Below, one piece after another: positions 10,769 to 62,684 of a DNA stretch of 64,000 nucleotides; the stretch's first letter is position 1; each line of letters opens with the position of its first letter. A program made the position numbers and the translations under genes. Under the pieces are notes generated by a model. It did not search any database, was not told where the DNA came from, and was given only the letters and a program-made list of their open reading frames with translations. Source of the stretch: Ophelia neglecta (lineage: Eukaryota); NCBI GenBank assembly GCA_965285935.1, contig OZ260666.1:30318001-30382000 (forward strand), in the 5' to 3' direction.

Positions 10769-13700
10769 ATGGAGCCTGATCCTGAAGAATGTTTCTTCAA
10801 TTGGAAGTTCAACTGCCAGCACAAGAAGGAATCTTTCATTGCTGCAACAGCTGTCCGTATAACAAACATAATACGCTGTAGCAAGTTATATGGTGATGAT
10901 AAACATTTTGAGCTTCAGAATGCATTAGACAAGAACACAGAAATAACTTTAAAATGTCACAAAAGCTGTGTATCATCCTACACTTCAAAGTCCCATACTG
11001 AACGCCACAAACGTCATAGGAGCGATGATCAAACTGAATTCACTCATCAAAAGGTAACTAGGCGTTCCTTGTCAACTGACAGGGCCAAAACATTCCAATT
11101 TCGAGAGCACTGTGTCTTTTGTGGTGATGAGTGTATAGTTGAGAAGGACAAGAAGAACCCTTCCAGATGGAGGGCTGCATTCTTGTTTCGAGAGATTGAC
11201 AAAAAACGGTACATATTAGAATTCTGTGAAAAGAGAAACGATAATGTTGCCGAAATTGTGCGCCGCCGTGTCTCGGCTGCGCTGAGTGACCTGCATGCTG
11301 AAGATGCCCGGTACCACCTTGACTGTCGGAAGAGATTCTTCTCCTCTAGGTCACTACCTGGGGAGACTGTGAGTCAAAAAGGTAGCACGGAAAAAAGTGC
11401 TGACCCAGCCCTTGAATCTGTTGTTGATATCCTGAGTAATGACAGATCAAGAATGTGGAATTCCGTTGAACTTTTCGAAGCCTACATAGACTTTGATGGA
11501 GACAAGACACTTTGCCGCAAAACTCTCGTGTCCAAACTTCAAGTTAGATTCGGAAATGAACTTCTTGTGTTGTCATCGCCTGGCATTGCGAGTATAATAG
11601 CTTTGCGCAGTTTTGCCGCGCAGACACTCCGGCTTGTCAATGATGAGGATGATGAAGTGGAAATAATAGCAACAAGAGCTAGCAAGAAAATTGTCCAGGA
11701 GGTTACCGGTATCAACATGGACAAGAAACATTATGACATAAGCATCAATACGAACATTGTAAAAGAATCGATCAGTAAATTCCTATTACTGTTGTTATCA
11801 AAGGTGTCCCCAAAGCTTGATAATACCTTGCCTGCATTGCTTATAGGTTCAATCATAACAAGTGTTGTAAAAAATCATGCCACCAGTTTGCAGGTAGATA
11901 TTGCAGGAAAAATGGGCGAATCCAAAAAGCTTATCAATAGTTTGTATTCGTACAAGGTTACGTGTTCTTACAGCGAGTTCCGACGTTTCAAAAAGTCATG
12001 TGCACGTGCGGCTGTCGAAGACATCAAGTTGTCAGGGATATCTAAAGCTGATCATGGTTTAGTCCAGGTCATTGTTGACAATTTCGATGCTGACATAAGC
12101 TCACAGAATGGGAAGCAATCAATCCACTCACTGGCTGTCCTCCTGACACAATCACAGACAATCACAGTGCAGGAAGGGACTCCTGAAAATGACAAGATCC
12201 AACGAATCCACAAGGATGACATGTCCAAGGAAGTCCCTTATGATGTGAACATTCATCGCTACCAAGGGGTGAAACAACCGGCAATGCCGCAGGAGGGAGC
12301 TACTAAGGCAGTCTTCTCTCTCAAAGCACTAGCACATCAGGCCATCGTAATGAAGAGAGCATCCGAGATGGATTTCGGATTTATGCAAGATGTCCTGAGG
12401 AATGAAGATTGTCCAGAGTTTCACGGCTACAACACCAAAGAAAGTAGAGACAAAGGCCACAAGGAGGATGTCAAGACAAGGGCTGTATACGTACCACTTA
12501 TTGACATGAAAACGTCGGACCCCGATACTATGATGACGGCGATGGTGAGGGCGCAGGAACTAACATTTGCTACTGGTCAAAGTTTCACAATTCTGACTTG
12601 TGACCAACAGCTCTACAGGGTTGCAGTACAAGTCCTTTGGGCGCATCCTGACAGGTTCAACGATATGTACTTGCGACTTGGGGGCATGCATGCTCTCATT
12701 AGTTTTGTAGGAGCTATAGGCACACTAATGGCTGACAGTGGGTTGTCTGATGTTTTGACGGAAGTGTTTGGAGGTGTCCAAAAGATGCTGAGTGGAAAGA
12801 AGTTTCCACAAAACGTGCGTGCACTCCGGCTGCTTGCTGAAGAGGTTCTGCGGAGCATTATCACGGATAATGAATTCGAGAAAGCTGATGATTTGATGAA
12901 AGCTTTGGAGGAGAGAGCAAGGCAAAGCAAGACAGTGAAACTGTGGGTTGATGTCTTAATAAAGCCAGTGTTTCTTATGATGTCTTACGTTAGGGCAGAA
13001 CGTGAGGGTGACTGACTTCTCCACCTTGCCACATTCAAGCAAATGCTCTCGTACTACTTCGCTTCCAGTCATGTTCACTACGCTAGGTATGGACTATACT
13101 ATCTCCGCACTATGGAGAAACTCCCGCCTCATGTTTTGAGCCATTTCATGCAAGGAGAGCATGTGACTCGTCACGTTCGAGGCATTTGGAATGGGATTTG
13201 GAGTGACCAATTCATAGAGTCCACCTTTATGAGGTATGGTCATGGTTCTGGAGGAATCATAGGAATCACACTATAGGAAGAAACTCTGAAGGTTTGGGCA
13301 CTTAGCCGTCATTTATGCTGCAAGATTGAATCCGAACTGGAAGAGATGGAGGAGGGTGAGACACTACACACCAGTCACCTCTGCCATAAAGAAGAAGGTA
13401 AAGCTCGAATTCAAGCTGATGGCAAAGATAGGGCTGGGATCCGTCAGAAGTTGGAAGCATATATCGATCCATTAGACCCAAAGGAACATCCGGATGGAAT
13501 AGTGAACATTGCCAGTGGCAGGGTTACTATACCTGCAGTGAATGTGCACGATGCAATATCCATTGGAGAAACGATGCTTGCGAGCTTTGAGAAGGACTTG
13601 CCCAGTGGCTTCTACAACACCATATCAAAACAGGTTACATATATGGCCACAGTGGACAAATCTCAACAGGTTGACACAAAAGCATATGATCTCAATTCGA

Positions 13701-15147
13701 TATTTGCTAGGGTTATTGCCTTGCTGGCAAGTGACCGCGACGTAGACATAAACGATGTCCTTTCTTATGAACTTGCCCCAATGCCAACCTCAATGTTCAA
13801 TAAAGATGGGATGCGAATTGCAAAAGGCAAATCAGCTCTGAAGAAGTCCCTGCAAGTGGAGGTGTCCAGCAGGAATGCTGGAGATGCAGACGTAACCGTG
13901 ATCGATGGTTCAGCGCTATTATGGACAATTCATTGGCCGGCCGATGGTACTGTGACAGATTATGTCGGCAACGTCAAGAAACGAGTTGCCTCATACCTTG
14001 TGAAAGTGACGTCTATCTGATATTCGATAGATACAATGAGTACAGTACAAAATCTGTCACAAGGGATGGCAGGGAGAGTGGCGTCAGCCGCATACATCAC
14101 TTGGGGCTGACAACAAAACTACCTGCCCAAAAGGTTGTCTTGTCAAATGTTGAGAACAAAAAACAGTTGATTAGGATCATCTGTAGGGATCTAACTGACG
14201 ATAGATTGTTCCACAACCGCAGCACTGAGAAACACAAGTTAGTTGTCACTGGAGAAGACCCATGCCCCACTGAAATCAAGAATGAAGACATCAGGGTCAG
14301 ATATGATCTGGAGACGTATCACGAAGAAGCCGATATCATTATTGTGCAGCAGGCCTTGAAGGGTGCCAGTGAAGCCAGGAGACTTGCTGTGGTATCAGAT
14401 GACACAGATGTGTTTGTCCTGTTGGTCCACCACTATGAGGAGGCAAAGCTGAACCTACCAATGACGATGGAATCACCTAGTAAAGGGAGGGCAGTGATAG
14501 ACATACAGCAGACAGTCAAAAAGCATCGCGACATCGTGAAGCACCTCCTTCCTGCACATGCCATTTCTGGTTGCGACACTGTGGCATGTTGCTTTGGAGT
14601 TGGAAAGGGCTCTGTTGTCAAATCGCTGAGGGCTGGATATAACCTAAACACTGTTGGGATCGTAGATGCATCCTTCAATGATGTTATACACCAAGCTACC
14701 GCTTTCATGTCTGCCTGTTATGGTGTGAAGGACGCAACAGACATGTCACAAACCAGGCTGTATGTATGGGGGAAAAAGAATGGAAAAGGGCATACAACCA
14801 CACCGAGCCTGTCTGCCCTTCCACCTACGAGAGAGGCATTTGCAGAGAACGTGAAGAGGGCTCATTATCAAGCAATCCTGTGGCGTACTCTCGACACAAA
14901 AGATTTACCAGAACTGAACACGGAGGACTACGGATGGAAAAAAGATATCAGAAACAAGTCACTGACACCATCTGCCATTCCGGATGGTGTTAAGCTTGCC
15001 CCTGATTACATCATGCAGATGATCCGATGTGGCTGCAAGAGCAACAACCCTTGCAGTTCAAAGAGGTGTAGTTGCACAGCCGGTCATGGCTCAGAGTGTA
15101 CTATCTTTTGTGCATGTTACTCAATAGGATGCGCTAGAGTAAAGTAG
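10769..15147 (+). pseudogene. Disrupted Academ transposase - XPG/FEN1-like (PIN-fold) nuclease - Cys-rich zinc-finger protein (~1459 aa if repaired)
   Basis: ORFs 10760, 13043 and 13346 share one frame, separated by single stops (TGA 13013-15 in GD*LLHL; TAG 13274-76). A 1-bp deletion near 14000 shifts into ORF 13921. Transposase-like acidic motifs: VDNFD, TCDQQLY, LGGMH, SDQFIE. XPG/FEN1-like motifs: VIDGSAL, LIFDRY, HEEAD, SDDTDVF, SGCDT..FGVGK. C-terminus CGCKSNNPCSSKRCSC...CTIFCAC. Confidence 0.88.
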
Positions 15148-22724: not shown

Positions 22725-24293
22725 TCATACATCTGTCTCTATGCTGATGTTGTTTAAGCTAGTGGGGTTGTTGGACTTGGTATGATTCTGCTTGTGCGAG
22801 GGGTCTCCACCTGGGTTGAGGCTGACACCTTCTTCCATCTCCATTATATCAGAGCAGCTGTCGGAAGCGATTGAGCCTTTCTTTCCACCGCGGGGGAAGT
22901 TCGGACAACTTTGCACGTGGACGTAGCTTTGCTTGTCCTCATTGTCCGTCTCGCGATGGTAGAAGTAGTTGAAGTTTGACACGATTACAGGAACTGGCAG
23001 GGCAATGGTGAGCACGCCGGCGATGGCGCACAGCGACCCTACCAGCTTCCCCCACACTCCGATTGGCCGCATGTCTCCATATCCAACCGTCGTCATGGTC
23101 ACCACAGCCCACCAAAACGCGTCCGGAATACTCTTGAAGTGCGACTTTTTAGAGTCCGCCTCAGCAAAGTACACAGCGCTGGAGAATAATATCACGCCGA
23201 TAAAAAGGAAGAAGATGAGCAACCCAAGTTCTCGCATACTGGCTTTGAGAGTCTGTCCGAGGATTTGTAAACCTTTTGAATGTCTGGATAGCTTGAATAT
23301 CCTGAACACTCGCACTAATCGGATGACCCTCAGAATGGCAAGCGACATTGCCTGGTTATTTGACCTACCTTCATCTGCGATCACTGTACCCAGAGTGATG
23401 AAATAGGGAATGATGGCAACTATATCAATGAGGTTCATAATGTTCTTGAAGAAAACTAGCTTATCAGGGCAGGAGGCAAATCGAACCAGTAACTCCGAGG
23501 TAAACCATATTATACATGCAGTCTCTATGATAAAAAATGGTTCATTAAATTTTGGTATATCATCCTCCTCCATAGCTGGATCTGTCCCATTTTGTGTACT
23601 GTTCACAACACGATAAGTCTTAAATTCTGGAAGAGTCTCCAAACAGAAAATCACAATGGAAAGTAAGATGACAGTAACTGAAAATATTGCGATAAGACGA
23701 GCCGCCATGGAACTTTCGGGGTATTCGAACAGCAGCCAAACTCGCTTTTGGAATTCATTTTCTGGTAACGGCTTCACCTCCTCTTTTATGAAGCCCTCGT
23801 CCTCACGGTATTTTTCTATAATTTCCTCACTAAGTTCATAAAATTTTATCTCCTCCGAGAAAACGTCCAACGGCACATTGACAGGTCGCCGTAACCTGCC
23901 TCCACTCTGGTAATAATATAATATTGCATCAAAACTAGGTCTATTCCGATCGAAGAAATACTCATTTCGAAGAGGATCGTAGTACCTGTTCCTCCTTTGA
24001 GGGTCCCCGAGCAGGGTATCCGGGAACTGATTGAGTGTTTTGAGCTGGGTCTCGAACCTTAATCCGCTGACATTGATCACCACCCTCTCTGAGCACTCAA
24101 ATTCATTGCCTCCAACTCCAGGGCCTTCGTCCAGATTGGTGGCAGTGTGCTGATCCTCTTCTGTCAGCTTTGGGAAGGACCTGGAAAGAGGAAGGGTGGA
24201 TCGGAGGTTAGGATTCAGCATCGGATGCTGGTTCATGTACGCCGGTGGGATTGGGCCCCCGTTCCCCTCCAGACCTGCCATAGCCGCTTCCAT
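22725..24293 (-). CDS. KCNA (Shaker): Shaker/Kv1 voltage-gated potassium channel alpha subunit, single-exon isoform (522 aa)
   Basis: T1 domain [14 protein letters not shown]...[11 protein letters not shown]4 [23 protein letters not shown], filter TTVGYGD, S6 PVP, C-terminal PDZ ligand ETDV. The first ATG is at 24293 (the ORF-track start at 24332 is TTG). The N-terminus resembles the Aplysia Kv1 inactivation peptide. Confidence 0.98.
24175..24212 (-). other. Internal 3' splice acceptor within the Shaker CDS (common exon would start at 24180, phase 2)
   Basis: Minus strand reads CCTAACCTCCGATCCACCCTTCCTCTTTCCAG|GTCCTT: branch motif CTAAC (branch A at 24208), pyrimidine tract and CAG|G, splitting Arg38 just before SFPKL. 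Confidence 0.8.
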
Positions 24294-24299
24294 CCTGCT

Positions 24300-24870
24300 G
24301 TCTTGGAGGTTCGGTCGGAGCACGGGGGTCAACCCCCACTTCTCTACAAACTCTAATTTCGAAATTTTGGCTGGCGGCTGTTCTATGCTATTGTATGTTG
24401 CATTAATGCTAATACTCCTACAATATGGCGGCTAGCAGAATGAAAGCAGATCCCGGATGGAAATTGAACTCGGTTGACGTCACGACACAATTCATGTTAT
24501 AGTAAACAGGCAAAGGGATTCGTCCACGATCATTTCGATCAATTGGACCCCAGTTTCCCAGTTCGCCGCCATGAATCGATGACAGTCTCTAAAGGCAACG
24601 TGCATAGTGAGTCCAGCGCAGTCAAGCATGTCATGTACGGCCATTTGACAACAATTCGAGCGCAGTAATATCTAAACAGTTCGAGCATCTCCCTATTATA
24701 CATACAGCCCGCTGGCTACCATTCTTAACGCAGGAACAAGTAGCCATGGATAACTATTCGACGAGCTACGCAGCCATGTTTGCGTATGTCATTCCCTCGC
24801 GTGGGGCCCGGAAACATGAATAGAATGGACACAAAACCCGCACACGAAGCCTCGTGAAAAAAGACTTATG
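24300..24870 (-). promoter_or_regulatory. CpG-enriched proximal 5' region/promoter of Shaker, with one CRE palindrome at 24475-24482
   Basis: Local CpG enrichment against a CpG-poor background. TGACGTCA at 24475. TSS not determinable. Confidence 0.45.
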
Positions 24871-27071: not shown

Positions 27072-27215
27072 ATGACGCAGTATTTGCCACCGAATTTGCT
27101 GGCGCTTTTCGCTCCAAGGGACCCGATGCCGTATATGCCTCCTACGGACAAGCTTCCACATGAGAAAAAGCAAGATACGTACATCGGTGTGGCCCAGTTT
27201 TTGAACCACTTTGAG
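27072..27215 (+). CDS. SNRNP70: U1 snRNP 70 kDa protein, coding exon 1
   Basis: [24 protein letters not shown]...FLNHFE is the conserved U1-70K N-terminus. Donor GAG|GTAAAG, phase 0. Confidence 0.97.
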
Positions 27216-27298
27216 GTAAAGTATAGGGCCCATTCAAGTTTTCTAGCGAACGTCCATGTTTGTTAAAAAAATTTACAAGTAAATGTAGGTTAACTTAC

Positions 27299-27345
27299 TT
27301 CACCCTTGGAAAACTTTCGAGCATGGCTGAAACAATAGTCGTCAT
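27299..27345 (-). CDS. Candidate short alternative Shaker first exon (MTTIVSAMLESFPRVK)
   Basis: 47 nt from ATG to the strong donor GAA|GTAAGT, phase 2. TATAAA lies ~45 nt upstream on the minus strand. Short, so chance is possible. Confidence 0.35.
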
Positions 27346-28383
27346 GATTAGCGACACCGGATGGGACAACACATGTAAAGCTGGTTTATAAAATGCCCTT
27401 CCGGGTTTTCAAATATCCAGTCAAATGTCCAGTTATAATCCAAATGCAATGTCAGGCTTTGGAGCCTTCAGAGAAGCGCCTTGCCTGCCAGGCCTTGGTC
27501 ACTGATGCTTAGCTCTCTGCTGACAATACAGTCGACCTGAATACACACTCGGGTCGTGATGTGTGATATGTTGTGTATTAATAATTTAGTTGTGTTGTGT
27601 GCATAATTTAATTTAGCCACGAGCTTGCAGCCAGCCTGACCTGTCACTAAGCCATTGTATACAGACAGTGTTTGACCAATGGTAGTTTTCAGCTTCGATG
27701 GCTATAGTCTCCTAGGTTTTATCAAATATGATGTGGTATTCAGCTTTACTCCAGTTAGATTCTACCTGTGTGAACCTGGGTTTTTAGATTATATCCAAGC
27801 CATAGTATAAAAGGTATAAGTGTGTCAGTTTTATATAGCACCTGGCTATTGCATTCACAGTCTTCATAAGAATAAATTATAATCAATCTTTTGGTAAATG
27901 TCTCTGGTTTAAAGCATGACAAAGGCCCTGTTTTAGATATTATGTAATTCCATATGCTACTAACACTGTATTCAGGAGCTCACAAATTTGATGTAACAGC
28001 AACTCTGATAACATATTATATTAAAACGATTATATCAGTAATAGTTTGTAGGGTTTTTAGACTTAAATATTAGCTATTCACTATTGATTAGTGCAATTGA
28101 TAGCTTTCGGTATAAATAAATTTGCACTGGTTATTAAATATTTGTGGATATTTTGATAAATTTGCTGAACATGCAATTGTACTACTATATAGCATGTACT
28201 TTAAAATCAATCATGAAAGACTAGGTCACTAAATATTGATGTGATATTTGGCTGTGGTCATTGTGTCAGTGTCAAACAGATATATTAATGTATGTTTGCA
28301 TTGTGAACCCTGCATGAGCATACCTCTCATCAGGTTATGGTTGGATGTGTAAAGTATAAACATGCCGGCATATGTATTCTTAC

Positions 28384-29030
28384 CTGTGCAGCGAGTCATC
28401 CTCTTCAGGGGTGATTTTTATATCCGGAATGGATTGTAATTTGGACGGTGATATCAACAGTGGGATTTGTGAACCCTCACTTTCTGACAGTTGCGGAAGA
28501 TCTGTGTTCCAGTGTAGAGCTCTTGGGGGCTGATACAGCCCTGTGTTAGGTGGCAGGCCTATGTCTGGTAGAACCTGCTGGCCATATCCTCCCATAGCTT
28601 CTTGAGGGGTACCTCCCCGGTTATGATTGCTGTCCCGTTCTCCCTCGCCTTCTTGGCCAATTGCTTGTACATTATTCTTATTTTCTAAGTCTTTCCTATG
28701 AAGCTTTTCATTCATACTGCTTGGCGTTGAATTCAACCATGTTGCTGGAGCTAGTGAACTCCTGCGCTTTTTGGCTGACGCCACTCCTGGGCGCGTGTTT
28801 TGTAAGCCTGATATACTTTTTTGAATTTGCTTCTGTCCAGTGTTATCCGTGCTAGAACGACGAGATCTGGGCCCCGTCATAGGATAGGCGTTCCTACGAA
28901 ACTGGGCCCGTAGCTGTGGATCGTATATTGGCATTAGGCTCCGAGTATACAAGTACAACTGCTTAATAAATGCTAAAATAGCAACCAATGGTGTAAGTAG
29001 CAAGCCTCCAGCCTTACTTTCTATTCCCAT
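28384..29030 (-). CDS. Antisense 215-codon exon in SNRNP70 intron 1; predicted long alternative Shaker N-terminus
   Basis: A 216-aa ATG ORF in AT-rich intron whose stop lies inside the near-consensus donor CAG|GTAAGA. 647 nt = phase 2, matching the Shaker acceptor at 24180 and giving ...DDSLHR-SFPKL (700 aa). Confidence 0.72.
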
Positions 29031-32000
29031 CTACCAAAGTTTTTAATACTGATAGGGAGCGATCCTTACATAAAACACTTCTATGTTCAGTATGTTGCGA
29101 AGTCATTTTGTCAGTGGTTTCTTCTCAGCAGCTCTAGTAGATATGAGGGTGGGCTGAAGCTGGGTGCTATTCTGCCCACCTAGGTGTATGTATGCTATCA
29201 CCAGTTCACCTGGCAGTCGGCTCTCTGACGGGCCAGGGAGGATGTAGCCTCAGTGGGCCGCCAAGGCAGACCATGTTTACTGTAGAGATTTCGCACTGGG
29301 CCAGCCCCTGCTATAGAGATCAAGGCGTCCTCAGTCTTGGAAACTTTGCCTATCAGTAAAGTCTGATCTATAATTGGCACTTGATTCTCACAGAAAATCG
29401 CTTTGGATAATGTTTTCGCCTTTTTGCTGCTCAGCTCTGTGCAATGATGCCTTGAGTTTATCAAGTGGTGAAATGTTTAGAACTTGGTCCCAAACTTGGC
29501 ACATGTATTGAAAGTGTTTTCTGCCGAGTTCACCCAATTTCTTAAGACTATTGGCACCCCAGTCTGATGCCTGCCAGTACCACGCTTGAAGCTGGCTGAT
29601 TGTCCATGGATAAGACTGGGAGCTCAGATTGCTATTTAATTTCTGGTAATGGGGCCCAGTTGTGGTAATCCTCTCTATATATTTGTTTGTGGCCCTGGTT
29701 CCAACTGCAAAACAGATGTTTCCTATTATTTCAGGAATATCATAAACCTGAGCAGAGTCAGTAATTAAAAGAAAGTCCTCTTTTATAGGTGTTCACTCCA
29801 GGTAGTTTACTTCTAGCCTTGCCATGCTAGACAGCTGTATTGTTTTGTATGCCATACAAATAATGGATACATGTACAGCACATGTCAAAGTAATTTATAA
29901 TCACTATATATAATAAATATACAGAACAGCTTGTGATGTGGAAGTCTGCTGCTGCCTCTGCCATTCACTCATGAATTCCCAGCATGCAATAAAGTAAGTT
30001 GTTACCAGACTTGTGTATCTATATTCATAAATCTAGCAAAGATGTATCCACTATATCATGGATATCACTGCCACTGTTGGGACACAGTGTAGTGCGTAAA
30101 TTCCACATTTCTTCAAAGCTACATCAGACATCTAGAGTATTGCCCAAGCTTCACAAGCTGCTTGTGCATAAAATTGTGATGATTGTTTTTCACAGATATC
30201 CTTTATATGTTTGTAGAAAGAATCTATTCCGTAACAGAAAAATGCAAGTTTACGCATACAGTCGTCCTTTCCACTTATTAATGATGGCGCATTTAAATGA
30301 AGTTATCAGAAGCCTTTGACAGTGCACTTGTTATCCGGGAGAGATAGTTCTGTAGCTGTGAGATTATCAGTGTGCCTGCTGTCAATAGAGAAGCAGTTAT
30401 GCCAACAGCAATATGGGACATAAATGTATTCTTAGTCTTTTTTTTTCTGCCGAGGTATTTGTAATATTCCTCACCGCGTTATGAGAGATTAGACACAGTT
30501 ACCAATAGTTTCCAGTTCAGACCCCACAGAAACTAAAAACTCACAGTGGAGAGTCAAATTCTCATATTTTTTTGATGTATTGATTTTGAATTAATATTTC
30601 CAGCATCAGAATGAGAGTCAATTATGCCTTGTGATTAATGGTAGGCAAATTGATTGTATCATGTAGGTCCATGGTACCATTATCAAGTATGTACAGTAAT
30701 TGCAGCTATTTTATGTGTACACATGACACACATGTAATGTATTAAAAGCTAAACTCTCCACTCTGATGTGTGGGTGAAATGAGATTGTGATGAGTCTGTG
30801 TCTATACTTTCCATGTTAATCCCATGCTAATGACTTCCTCTGCAATATGGTCATGTCTTTACCATATTTATGGCGTTCAAACAAAAAATCCAAATTTATC
30901 CTTGTGTTTTATGCTGGCAGAGTACTGGTTGCCATCTATTGTGTTACTAACACATGTATATTTTCCACTGAATTAGCTAGCTGCTTCCTGTGGTAGGAGT
31001 ATTAAGGAACTCATCATCATCTTCATTGCAAAATTGCCAGTTGAGGCCTCCCACCATACTCATGGTACTAGGGCAATTGTGTGGGTACAGAACAAAGTCA
31101 CAAGTGAAGGCAATTTACTTAAAGTAATTGCAGCTTTTCCTCAGAGTCCTTGATTAGTTTGAGCTGGCACCTGTTACCAACCAGAGTAGCTTTCTCTTGA
31201 CAAGTTATAAGTGGTCTCCATTGGGCTGTGTGTACAATGTACCTGCCCCGAGTCTCCTCCTGCAGGTAATATTGGATATAGATTGACCAAAGTGTAGTAC
31301 ATGTTTCCATAAATGTGGCTTCTCACTGTATATCCAAAGAGCGACAGCTCTCGGTAGAAAATGTAGTTTTAATATCTTGCTAGTCATCCAAGTGTTGGTT
31401 CGTCTGCCTTTTCCATTAGGCCATGAATGGGAATATGTTTGTAGCTAAAAGTTTTCAGAATAAAGAAATGGATGGAATGCCTTGAGACAGCTGTTGCTGG
31501 CTGAAGCGTGCTATGTAGGTACTCCCCCCTCCGGAGTCCTACACCCCTCTGTATAATAACTAGGAGCAAGGTTGGCTGGTATATTCAGCGTGTTTCAAAG
31601 CTGTGGAGAAAATGTCCACCCACAATGCTGGAACGTTTTCAAGAATCCAAATGGATGGCCATTAACACGCTGCTGACAGGGTTGACAAAACGCGAGTGAG
31701 ATATACAGAAGGTGTACACCCCCTCTCTTCTTTAAACATCATTTGGCGGCAGATCCTCAGCGAGAGCCATTAGACGGCTCACCGGAGAACAAATTAGCCT
31801 CCCAAGTCTCTCCTCCTCGCTACTCACCTTGCAGTCCCTACCCTGTACAGGCTGCGGCAGCCACTGCTCAGGAAACGCAGATGATTCCTTGATTCGCTCC
31901 CGGATCTGATTTGGCTGTATCGTCACACCTTGCCTTCCTGTTGATGTGAGCAATTATTTGTTGGAGAAAAATGTTTTTTCTTCTGACTTTGTGCTTCTTC

Positions 32001-33630
32001 TGTAAATTGCCTATACATGTATATGTATACATATTCAAGGAACTCAAATTGCTCTGTCAAAGGCACTTGAATGTGTGTGAATCATGGTATAAAATGTGGA
32101 CACATTTCTAGATAAAACTCAGAAGGTGAAATTGCCCTGTAATGTATTGTCTGCCAGACGGAGGCAGAGAACCGCTACATGTGTGTCTGGTGCTGTGAAA
32201 TTCAGCATACTGTGGAGATATATAAACAAGTTGACTTGTTTGTTCCAGGCAGTGTTAGGTTTAGGCTCCACCAGTCTGCCAATTAGGCTATGTAATAGAT
32301 TCATTACATCCTTGTTACATGAGCCTCTGCTGTCATCTTGAATTATTGCCTTTCATCACAGCTCTCTCCTGAGTCTCAAGTCTAGCAGGGACAGATTAAA
32401 AGCTTTTATTTGGCTTCATTGTATGCTCACTTTGAGAACGCCCAAGTGCAAATGAGAAAATATGTTACCCTTTTATGATTGGGTTCTATTTTCTATTGTC
32501 TAATGTAATACAATGTGTTGGCAGCTGTTTATAATATTATTGTAAAAGCACATACCGACATGTACAACTTACATTTATAATAATTTCTCTGGTTATCATA
32601 ACATACTACAATAATTATTGAATAATATAATGTATGCATTTACACTAGAAAAATAAAACAAGATATTACAAACTATATTCCACATTATAAAAAAAATCTA
32701 GAACATTGGCAAGCTTCTATTATTTCTACAAAACAGCTTAAATTGGAGAGTTGAGTGTCAGGAGCTAGGATTTATCAAACCTTAGGTGTGGCGTATTCCA
32801 GAAACCTTCTAACTGAAGTTATTAGTTAAAATGCTGTCATTATGATTGAGCAAATGGTGATCAAACATTGCAGCCTAGCTTTGTGAAGCCCTTAGTTTTC
32901 CTTTGCTGGTAATCAGGTGAAATCAGGCCAGAATATTATGGTAGATACAGCTATATGTATCTTCATGTACATCAATTCCATTACACCCAATTGCCTTAAA
33001 TAAATATTAAATAACTAGCTCTGCTCAGCTTCCTCTGAGGGATGAACCATGAGGGGGGGGGGGGGGATGGACTGACCTCAAAACTTAATGGGTGTGTGCT
33101 GCCAGAAGTTTCAAACTGTTACTATAGTACCCTTATTAATGCAGATTTTATGGCAGACATTTTCAAAAATTGGCAACATAGCCATTCATGCTGGCAGATG
33201 AATCGGTATTCAATCATCTGTCACTAGGGTTCACTATATTCGCAATTAATATCTTATTTGCTGTATAAATCAAAATTTCAGCAATATTTAGTAACAAGGT
33301 TAAGTTGAAAATATCAAAATTTCCAGATATTTTGGGGAAAAAACCGCCCTTAGCTTGATGAAAACAGACTCTGTATTCTCAAATCAACAACACTTTCTGG
33401 CAGTAAATATTTAGTATGGAGGGAAATGGAGGTGCCCCCTTCCTGTGCCTGGTGATTGACATGAAAAAACTGCTTTGCTGAAATTATGACATACAGATCT
33501 AGAGCACTTGTTTATGTTTTATTTTTCCCTGTTCATTGGCTCTCTGAGATATATATATTTCATGTGCATTAGCATCTGTTGTGTAGACTGAATAAACAAG
33601 TTAACTGAGGGCAAAATATGATCTTTTCAG

Positions 33631-38998: not shown

Positions 38999-39248
38999 CA
39001 GGGGTCTACACTAACTTCTCTCAGCACTTGCCCAGGGGGTAAGTAGCACCAGGAAACTACTTGCCCGCATCATAGGCTTACTGTCCCAAAAATATTCGTA
39101 CATATAGAATATACAAGATATCCAACAATCGGTGATTTGGGGAATTTTAGCAGGTTGCCCGGCGGGAAGTTAGTAAATAAAACCTTTCTGCCCGCAAGCA
39201 GATTTGAGGTGCCCCGGGACGTCAGGCAATAGTTAGTGTAGACTCCTG
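38999..39248. mobile_element. 250-bp MITE with 17-bp TIRs
   Basis: CAGGGGTCTACACTAAC ... GTTAGTGTAGACTCCTG (1 mismatch), with CAGGT directly repeated on both flanks. Confidence 0.75.
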
Positions 39249-44534: not shown

Positions 44535-46340
44535 TGACTGATCTCTCTAGCCAGTCCCTCAGCCTCCTGTCCTGGTGGGACAGGTTACTGACACAGCACT
44601 CAAGGAGCTAGGTGACTGATCTCTCTAGCCAGTCCCTCAGCCTCCTGTCCTGGTGGGACAGGTTACTGACACAGCACTCAAGGAGCTAGGTGACTGATCT
44701 CTCTAGCCAGTCCCTCAGCACTCAAGGAGCTAGGTGACTGATCTCTCTAGCCAGTCCCTCAGCCTCCTGTCCTGGTGGGACAGGTTACTGACACAGCACT
44801 CAAGGAGCTAGGTGACTGATCTCTCTAGCCAGTCCCTCAGCCTCCTGTCCTGGTGGGACAGGTTACTGACACAGCACTCAAGGAGCTAGGTGACTGATCT
44901 CTCTAGCCAGTCCCTCAGCCTCCTGTCCTGGTGGGACAGGTTACTGACACAGCACTCAAGGAGCTAGGTGACTGATCTCTCTAGCCAGTCCCTCAGCCTC
45001 CTGTCCTGGTGGGACAGGTTACTGACACAGCACTCAAGGAGCTAGGTGACTGATCTCTCTAGCCAGTCCCTCAGCCTCCTGTCCTGGTGGGACAGGTTAC
45101 TGACACAGCACTCAAGGAGCTAGGTGACTGATCTCTCTAGCCAGTCCCTCAGCCTCCTGTCCTGGTGGGACAGGTTACTGACACAACACTCAAGGAGCTA
45201 GGTGACTGATCTCTCTAGCCAGTCCCTCAGTCTCCTGTCCTGGTGGGACAGGTTACTGACACAGCACTCAAGGAGCTAGGTGACTGATCTCTCTAGCCAG
45301 TCCCTCAGCCTCCTGTCCTGGTGGGACAGGTTACTGACACAGCACTCAAGGAGCTAGGTGACTGATCTCTCTAGCCAGTCCCTCAGCCTCCTGTCCTGGT
45401 GGGACAGGTTACTGACACAGCACTCAAGGAGCTAGGTGACTGATCTCTCTAGCCAGTCCCTCAGCACTCAAGGAGCTAGGTGACTGATCTCTCTAGCCAG
45501 TCCCTCAGCCTCCTGTCCTGGTGGGACAGGTTACTGACACAGCACTCAAGGAGCTAGGTGACTGATCTCTCTAGCCAGTCCCTCAGCCTCCTGTCCTGGT
45601 GGGACAGGTTACTGACACAGCACTCAAGGAGCTAGGTGACTGATCTCTCTAGCCAGTCCCTCAGCCTCCTGTCCTGGTGGGACAGGTTACTGACACAGCA
45701 CTCAAGGAGCTAGGTGACTGATCTCTCTAGCCAGTCCCTCAGCCTCCTGTCCTGGTGGGACAGGTTACTGACACAGCACTCAAGGAGCTAGGTGACTGAT
45801 CTCTCTAGCCAGTCCCTCAGCCTCCTGTCCTGGTGGGACAGGTTACTGACACAGCACTCAAGGAGCTAGGTGACTGATCTCTCTAGCCAGTCCCTCAGCC
45901 TCCTGTCCTGGTGGGACAGGTTACTGACACAGCACTCAAGGAGCTAGGTGACTGATCTCTCTAGCCAGTCCCTCAGCCTCCTGTCCTGGTGGGACAGGTT
46001 ACTGACACAACACTCAAGGAGCTAGGTGACTGATCTCTCTAGCCAGTCCCTCAGTCTCCTGTCCTGGTGGGACAGGTTACTGACACAGCACTCAAGGAGC
46101 TAGGTGACTGATCTCTCTAGCCAGTCCCTCAGCCTCCTGTCCTGGTGGGACAGGTTACTGACACAGCACTCAAGGAGCTAGGTGACTGATCTCTCTAGCC
46201 AGTCCCTCAGCCTCCTGTCCTGGTGGGACAGGTTACTGACACAGCACTCAAGGAGCTAGGTGACTGATCTCTCTAGCCAGTCCCTCAGCCTCCTGTCCTG
46301 GTGGGACAGGTTACTGACACAGCACTCAAGGAGCTAGGTG
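44535..46340. repeat. 78-bp tandem repeat array (22 full and 2 truncated 44-bp units)
   Basis: Unit TGACTGATCTCTCTAGCCAGTCCCTCAGCCTCCTGTCCTGGTGGGACAGGTTACTGACACAGCACTCAAGGAGCTAGG, near-identical copies. Short units at 44691 and 45437. Confidence 0.97.
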
Positions 46341-60960: not shown

Positions 60961-61893
60961 GTACCTGCCTTGTCAGGGCAGTTGGGCTGGTCTCCTGACA
61001 TACCTGCCTTGTAAGGGCAGTTGGGCTGGTCTCCTGACATACCTGCCTTGTCAGGGCAGTTGGGCTGGTCTCCTGACATACCTGCATTGTAAGGGCAGTT
61101 GGGCTGGTCTCAGACATACATGTACCTGCCTTGTCAGGGCAGTTGGGCTGGTCTCAGACATACCTGCCTTGTAAGGGCAGTTGGGCTGGTCTCAGACATA
61201 CCTGCCTTGTAAGGGCAGTTGGGCTGGTCTCAGACATACCTGCCTTGTAAGGGCAGTTGGGCTGGTCTCCTGACATACCTGCCATGTCAGGGCAGTTGGG
61301 CTGGTCTCCTGACATACCTGCCTTGTAAGGGCAGTTGGGCTGGTCTCCTGACATACCTGCCTTGTCAGGGCAGTTGGGCTGGTCTCCTGTCATACCTGCC
61401 TTGTCAGGGCAGTTGGGCTGGTCTCCTGATATACCTGCCTTGTCAGGGCAGTTGGGCTGGTCTCAGACATACCTGCCTTGTAAGGGCAGTTGGGCTGGTC
61501 TCAGACATACCTGCCTTGTCAGGGCAGTTGGGCTGGTCTCCTGATATACCTGCCTTGTCAGGGCAGTTGGGCTGGTCTCCTGACATACCTGCCTTGTAAG
61601 GGCAGTTGGGCTGGTCTCAGACATACCTGCCTTGTAAGGGCAGTTGGGCTGGTCTCAGACATACCTGCCTTGTAAGGGCAGTTGGGCTGGTCTCCTGACA
61701 TACCTGCCTTGTCAGGGCAGTTGGGCTGGTCTCCTGATATACCTGCCTTGTCAGGGCAGTTGGGCTGGTCTCCTGACATACCTGCCTTGTCAGGGCAGTT
61801 GGGCTGGTCTCAGACATACCTGCCTTGTAAGGGCAGTTGGGCTGGTCTCCTGACATACCTGCCTTGTCAGGGCAGTTTGGCTGGTCTCCTGAC
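60961..61893. repeat. 38/39-bp minisatellite, about 24 copies
   Basis: Unit GACATACCTGCCTTGT(A/C)AGGGCAGTTGGGCTGGTCTC(CT/A). It accounts for the many repetitive ORFs in the track. Confidence 0.97.
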
Positions 61894-62684
61894 TGCATTT
61901 AAAGGAGTATTTGCATCTTCTGTGCTGCATTAATAAACAAGTGCTGCCAAGTCTCAGACACAACTAGCATAAGACATTTTCAGCTTTTTGCCTTCTCCAG
62001 CCATTGAGAGGCTCTTCTCTTGCATCTCAAGTGATATTTCCTGCATCTATGGCACATTTTCTTGATTTTAGAATACGGCATGTAATATGACCTTGATTGA
62101 GGTGATGGTTTCTACTAGACTATTTCTGAATTCCTACTAGACAACCCAGCCTAGGAAGATTCAAATGCCTGATTGTGCTTCAGAAAGACATCAATTGAGC
62201 ATTTGATTTTCTTCTGTTACACATAGTCTGGGACAGATAAGGGTTGCAGAAATAAGTGCTATAATCCAAAAAAAAACTTGGCCCTATTAATCTGTAAAGG
62301 GTCCCATTGTACAGAGCTGGGGAATGTCCTGCACATGTTTAATAATAACACAGCTGCCTCTATAGACTGAAGCAGGGTACCTCAATCAGCAGCCAATCTA
62401 ATAATGGCTAAAATAGTTTTAATTATTAAATGTTAATTTGATGGATTAACTTGTAAATTTTCTCTGCACAATTTAGTGCCATTTACAATTTAAGAAAGAT
62501 GTTTAACATATACAGTTATGAAGAACACCCTTTGGATCATGGTCTCCCTTTATTGTGTAGCAGATACTGACGCTCAGCAACCACTCTACATTACTGATAC
62601 CAAAAGGGCATTGATCATAGTAAATTTTAAGGGTTTTGTTGCAGTTACAATTATAGTGGGTGACCCTGGTAAAGTAGTCAGTCA

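Follow-up and report, generated by a model that had tools for sequence, protein, structure and literature searches.

Within the first 38 codons of a Kv1/Shaker channel gene of Ophelia neglecta, a phase-2 YAG/G (the slash marks the splice point) likely works as a 3' splice site that lets first exons from upstream take the place of the ancestral inactivation peptide. The nucleotide and protein evidence laid out below makes it very likely that this splice acceptor inside the Kv1 coding exon is real, and the in-exon acceptor system is probably a protostome-wide feature. The gene lies in a 64,000-nucleotide stretch of DNA, analysed as a whole and referred to here as the window; the features under discussion are collected in Table 1.

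The Kv1 open reading frame encodes a T1 domain (BTB_2) and a six-transmembrane pore domain (Ion_trans), as defined in Pfam, and its nearest family is Kv1/Shaker. The best named full-length match to the protein comes from Capitella teleta (85%), with which it was grouped weakly in a quick tree (a tree of weak support that left out P0120, P0063 and the paralogues from the same genome), pointing to a probable annelid rather than a mollusc. The N-terminus is of the Kv1AnID type, which the available text of PMC3634772 defines by an acidic residue at both position 2 and position 9 as well as by similarity up to T1; here, E2 and E9 of MEAAMAGLE are acidic, and the alignment shows similarity up to T1. 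In Aplysia Kv1 (AKv1), the delta2-61 deletion causes the loss of N-type inactivation, according to the accessible part of PMC11639194. The segment that encodes this N-terminus is likely the end of an intron when the upstream exons serve. The same genome holds four intron-free Kv1-like paralogues (G000 C1, L002-L005) with 41-60% identity, one match having an internal stop, and 54 Kv matches in total, many of them clustered on C12, which suggests an expanded Kv family.

Kv1 codons 28-38 read CCT AAC CTC CGA TCC ACC CTT CCT CTT TCC AGG. As the original prediction had it, these channel codons also spell out a CTAAC, a 14-nt pyrimidine run and CAG/G, so that YAG and a pyrimidine tract, the elements of a U2-type 3' splice site, are found at 24181/24180. 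The predicted 28-nt spacing of CTAAC holds when measured to the splice point, not to the pyrimidine run as had been worded. With 17 pyrimidines in 20 positions, the site is the most pyrimidine-rich among the 111 AG dinucleotides of the coding sequence (the runner-up has 15). When YAG, at least 17/20 pyrimidines and yTrAy at -18 to -40 were combined into a joint criterion, it was passed by two of the 4095 minus-strand AGs of the window, the acceptor itself and one on a poly-C run. For an estimate of the chance level, the peptide was recoded synonymously (200,000 draws with each of three codon tables, the observed values serving as thresholds). At least 17/20 pyrimidines arose with p=0.007-0.011, YAG with p=0.22-0.28, the CTRAY branch motif with p=0.25-0.28, and all three jointly with p=0.0006-0.0009. 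Thus, the pyrimidine tract is beyond chance, and the branch motif alone is at chance. Among 12 other acceptors of the genome, inferred from homology, the tract scores range from 10 to 18 out of 20, which places the Kv1 acceptor in the upper range, with a tract that is C-rich rather than T-rich; strict CTRAY occurs in none of these 12 and yTnAy in eight. The strength of the tract is due in part to a Leu codon (CTT) just ahead of Ser-Arg, where 65 of the 78 read-through homologues carry Asn and none carries Leu; judged from this sequence comparison, this tract-lengthening codon is a local feature.

Table 1. Features of the Kv1 locus and its U1-70K neighbourhood in the window
Feature	Position	Strand	Remarks
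Kv1/Shaker ORF, 522 aa, read-through isoform	22725..24293	-	frame intact throughout, intron-free
Constant core exon, T1 and S1-S6 to stop	22725..24180	-	opens G/TCC TTC CCA AAG (SFPK)
Phase-2 acceptor CAG/G, Ser37 and Arg38 codons	24180..24183	-	AG at 24182-24181, first exon base G24180
Kv1AnID-type N-terminus, codons 1-37 + 2 nt	24181..24293	-	coding if read through
14-nt pyrimidine run, codons Thr-Leu-Pro-Leu-Ser	24183..24196	-	
Candidate branch point CTAAC	24207..24211	-	A at 24208, -28 from splice point
Candidate 24-codon extension from ATT (AUU), WGLTPV motif	24294..24365	-	frame without ATG
U1-70K (SNRNP70) first coding exon	27072..27215	+	PF12220, E=1.2e-16; antisense within both predicted Kv1 introns
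U1-70K intron 1	27216..33630	+	GT..AG joint seen in run X2 (a contig); the two upstream exons of Kv1 sit in it on the minus strand
Predicted short upstream exon, MTTIVSAMLESFPRV + AA	27299..27345	-	donor GTAAGT 27298-27293, phase 2
Predicted long upstream exon, 215 open codons + AG	28384..29030	-	donor GTAAGA 28383-28378, phase 2; 5' end uncertain

Both candidate partner exons end in donors of phase 2, the phase of the acceptor, and are in frame with it. The short exon resembles the short first exon of molluscs and a nemertean: in a six-frame scan of the window, it was the sole clear match for each of three homologous short first exons, and its BLOSUM score against a mollusc short first exon is 35, compared with 31 or less in shuffled windows (n=40). 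A phase-0 join of this exon to AAG at 24167 was dismissed, given that its consensus donor, GTAAGT, has phase 2. At its end, the short exon encodes SFPR (27315-27304, minus strand), an echo of the SFPK of the core that is not found in the mollusc or nemertean short exons; the predicted isoform would hold the motif twice. For the long exon, no significant homologue was detected among 1951 database candidates or in Pfam, and the best of 14 tests gave p=0.035. When 11 homologue N-termini were compared with the window by tblastn, none matched at the long exon, the best hit (E=0.035) lying elsewhere and on the wrong strand. Two more ATG-led short frames with phase-2 donors are present on the minus strand (34759-34725, GAG/GTGAGC; 29274-29210, CAG/GTGAAC), and these are possible extra first exons or chance occurrences. 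Outside the Kv1 locus, three overlapping or adjacent long open reading frames (10769-15147, plus strand; 748, 224 and 408 aa, the C-terminus being rich in Cys) likely represent a DNA transposon, judged by eye, and tandem arrays, whose units measure about 78 nt and 39 nt, occupy approximately 44560-46330 and 61000-61930.

The U1-70K gene (27072-63920, plus strand) is interleaved head-to-head with Kv1, and a similar spacing is seen at a metagenomic locus, L017 (3342-3196, minus strand). In human, KCNA7 presumably adjoins SNRNP70. L017 was obtained in a search for orthologous DNA, in which a metagenome scan yielded two loci from 42 pattern matches; no orthologous DNA was found in 13 viral contigs or in 238 prokaryotic genomes. 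The two loci, L016 and L017, are identical in sequence there and hence amount to one independent observation of orthologous DNA. L017 is bivalve-like and is placed beside Mactra in the quick tree. Its order is a long exon ending CA/GTAAGT, a short exon MATLVSAILET ending TT/GTAAGT, U1-70K exon 1 in antisense and an AUG-started core with TCC AG/G. This repeats the order and the phases of the window, with the long exon at the matching position and 77 nt between the end of U1-70K exon 1 and the short exon, compared with 83 nt in the window. The junction residues predicted by the L017 donors are Gln and Leu, as in bivalve isoform models. TCC AG/G is identical in L016, L017 and the window, and at the L017 acceptor 12 of 20 positions are pyrimidines, the longest run is 4, and both CTRAY and yTnAy are absent at -18 to -40. 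Accordingly, the view of the branch point and tract as conserved, codon-built elements is not supported. Of the AG and the pyrimidine bias that had been expected in orthologues, the AG is kept at this single locus and the bias is weak. Probably, only the Ser-Arg that forms YAG/G is constrained across species, with variable tract strength and branch motif.

Protein isoforms place a switch at the same column. Among the retrieved homologues, unrelated N-termini stop right before S[FY]P[KR] in gastropods, bivalves, a chiton, Lingula, Lineus and Macrostomum, and arthropod N-termini (insects, crustaceans, myriapods and chelicerates) switch right before SLPKL, which in Drosophila Shaker is aligned with SFPKL. 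Alternative N-termini of the Shaker type are thus found at the protein level, the DNA phase being seen in the window and L017. Read-through and swapped forms coexist within one species in Mytilus trossulus, Mizuhopecten, Pomacea, Biomphalaria and Macrostomum, and the Logan pair P0041/P0217 combines identical cores with one read-through and one swapped form. In P0147, the sister of the read-through protein P0002 and close to the protein of the window, Met immediately precedes SFPK, which fits AT/G. Ser-Arg occupies the junction in 76 of the 78 distinct read-through contexts. The junction residue of swapped proteins is never N, D, H, Y, F or C (39/39 non-arthropod and 62/62 arthropod rows; background, 19-21%), as expected if the core exon contributes a purine third base. 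Removal of six misfiled or ambiguous rows (P0029, P0032, P0217, P0053, P0059 and P0068) makes the non-arthropod count 33/33. Because of the kinship among the rows, p-values for the junction residue are nominal. The named isoforms are for the most part predictions of gene models and not verified transcripts. Together, the phase-2 upstream exons, the layout of L017 and the isoforms that switch at this column support both the proposed working acceptor within coding sequence and the proposal that the Aplysia-like N-terminus is exonic in one isoform and intronic in the others.

Five sequencing runs matched the window, one recorded as RNA and one guessed to be RNA, both with small shares; the other three (X3-X5) are DNA-like and unbroken across introns. 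Neither of the two RNA or RNA-like runs (X1 and X2) reaches the junction region (24082-24328), a lack of cover that is uninformative; use of the acceptor in O. neglecta is thus a prediction. A repeat of about 250 bp at 38999-39248 has a very high copy number, the depth of the X3 contig exceeding 30,000.

We propose the following mechanism. A transcript that starts just 5' of 24293 reads through the acceptor and, by its sequence, would retain the Kv1AnID N-terminus. Promoters 3-5 kb upstream would supply either the short exon or the long exon; both break off after the second base of a codon, ahead of a GTAAG donor, and could join G24180 in frame. By analogy with the AKv1 work, read-through channels would show N-type inactivation as Aplysia Kv1 does, and swapped channels, devoid of the inactivation peptide, would have altered gating. 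The swap at codon 38 would deprive the channel of its ball peptide and, in the case of the short exon, put a hydrophobic segment in its place. One lophotrochozoan Kv1 gene is therefore predicted to give rise to fast-inactivating and differently gating channels via promoter choice.

A further N-terminal variant may start upstream of the ATG. The Kv1 frame is open for 46 codons 5' of the ATG and free of further ATGs, and the conserved, ATG-less in-frame motif suggests a putative AUU start of a Kv1 extension. The motif is present in 19 retrieved proteins, many of them close relatives of each other, and conservation starts at an Ile, encoded here by ATT with A at -3. Close matches lie ahead of AnID in other, worm-like homologues (in P0317 at a distance of about 130 codons, all Met-free) and ahead of SLPKL in a spider model (P0109, WGVTPVLRP..EGNG..LPSR), in a Drosophila model and in beetle-type proteins (P0283 and P0286, in which a WGLTPV segment is joined to SLPKL). 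Genomic read-through as the origin of the two beetle-type proteins was rejected, both being full-length and probably cDNA-derived. The FlyBase table of non-AUG genes includes Sh with AUU (PMC4528330, Table S3), and this AUU may be the codon equivalent to the ATT of the window. In L017, the motif was not found and the upstream frame is closed. A database query with the N-terminal 40 residues of the extended frame gave no scoring match; phmmer with representatives gave three matches, two carrying the extension motif and one unrelated. A start-enhancing hairpin 3' of the ATT was rejected (z=0.27), and the mammalian NAT1 motif GCCGCCRNNXXXG was discarded as the ATT context, not being an exact match.

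The original prediction read the acceptor as a route from multi-exon Shaker to single-exon KCNA genes. The available parts of three sources speak against this polarity. Shaker open reading frames are intronless in 14 of the 18 complete Nematostella genes, in the sea-urchin gene and in seven of eight mammalian genes (PMC3519636); amphioxus genes are single-exon, and KCNA is inferred to derive from an intronless ancestor (PMC1978502); and the single-exon AnID gene is described as ancestral and lost in ecdysozoans (PMC3634772). With the intronless ancestor indicated in these texts, there is no retroposition to explain. The direction was probably the opposite, and the acceptor more likely illustrates how an intronless Kv1 became multi-exon Shaker. 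Because the acceptor coincides with the N-terminus junction of arthropod Shaker, it was likely added to intronless Kv1 in a protostome ancestor; arthropods would afterwards have lost AnID and retained exon swapping. On balance, we favor the scenario in which the Shaker N-terminus system and the lophotrochozoan acceptor are one protostome invention on an intronless Kv1. Ser-Arg would have become the acceptor, and first exons would have been recruited in antisense within U1-70K intron 1. In arthropods, the first segment of the ancestral gene would survive as an AUU-started WGLTPV exon without the inactivation peptide. If so, Aplysia Kv1 and its kin would have predicted non-AnID and AUU-extended isoforms.

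Three other explanations bear on this evidence. The junction could be real and the lophotrochozoan and arthropod systems convergent, with AG/G at Arg38 serving as a ready proto-splice site; the upstream exons of the two groups indeed have no clear common sequence except the WGLTPV segment. We regard such convergence as unlikely, given that the column is identical and the phase compatible in both groups, that the spider protein P0109 retains the extension-like segment ahead of SLPKL, and that P0283 and P0286 link the WGLTPV segment to it. Somewhat less likely still is that the bilaterian ancestor already possessed the upstream exons and the acceptor, and that deuterostomes dropped the exons, leaving single-coding-exon KCNA. 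Loss of upstream exons needs no retroposition, and the Kv1 sample contained no named invertebrate deuterostome; against this stand the intronless Nematostella, urchin and mammalian genes (available text of PMC3519636) and the single-exon amphioxus genes with KCNA derived from an intronless ancestor (PMC1978502, likewise as available), and even then the coding body was never multi-exon. That the acceptor is an unused by-product of protein constraint on Ser-Arg-Ser-Phe-Pro, next to decayed or spurious upstream exons, fits the lack of spliced reads and RNA cover at 24082-24328 in O. neglecta, the YAG in 22-28% of synonymous recodings and the SHSR-SF[SNG][KR]L homologues (P0097, P0101, P0120 and P0267-P0275), which keep Ser-Arg with none listed as swapped, but is very improbable in view of the intact short exon with its consensus phase-2 donor, the 215 open codons of the long exon, the agreement of the layout with L017 and a tract that exceeds chance.

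Alternative first exons, hybrid exons and N-terminal splicing of Shaker are already known, and the lophotrochozoan isoforms are known as automatic annotations: Kv1 RefSeq models of molluscs, a brachiopod and a nemertean show long and short alternative N-termini. In a literature search that covered few subscription papers, we found no paper describing the lophotrochozoan isoforms, the in-exon acceptor or the identity of the junction with that of Shaker, and the in-exon acceptor was not found in the available text of a 2025 bioRxiv Kv phylogeny. Prince and Pfaffinger (2013; PMC3634772), in the text available, treat Kv1AnID genes as structurally simple and describe no internal acceptor.

Like Aplysia AKv1 (NP_001191634, P0255), the Kv1 gene of the window has a MEAAMAGLE start, a single coding exon and LPxSR-SFPKL before T1; AKv1 itself has the read-through N-terminus. 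As in Drosophila and other arthropod Shaker genes, in which variable N-termini meet the constant region at x/SLPKL, the switch falls at the equivalent column, x/SFPKL, in a compatible phase. Unlike in arthropod Shaker, a single exon makes up the constant region as far as the stop, and an AUG-started coding N-terminus occupies the DNA just before the acceptor; most arthropod Shaker forms lack AnID (PMC3634772, available part). The arrangement is also akin to hybrid first-internal exons, which are first in some transcripts and internal, or spliced to, in others, as far as the accessible texts of PMC11797052 and bioRxiv 10.1101/2021.05.27.446076 go. In contrast to the exons in those texts, the Kv1 acceptor lies 113 nt into the coding part, the skipped segment is a predicted functional peptide, and the arrangement appears to be common to several phyla. 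Such an acceptor would show in concrete terms how a gene without introns can acquire alternative first exons with its original reading frame unbroken, and would connect the textbook N-terminal variants of Shaker with the single-exon Kv1 of molluscs and annelids, which is supposed to be simple.
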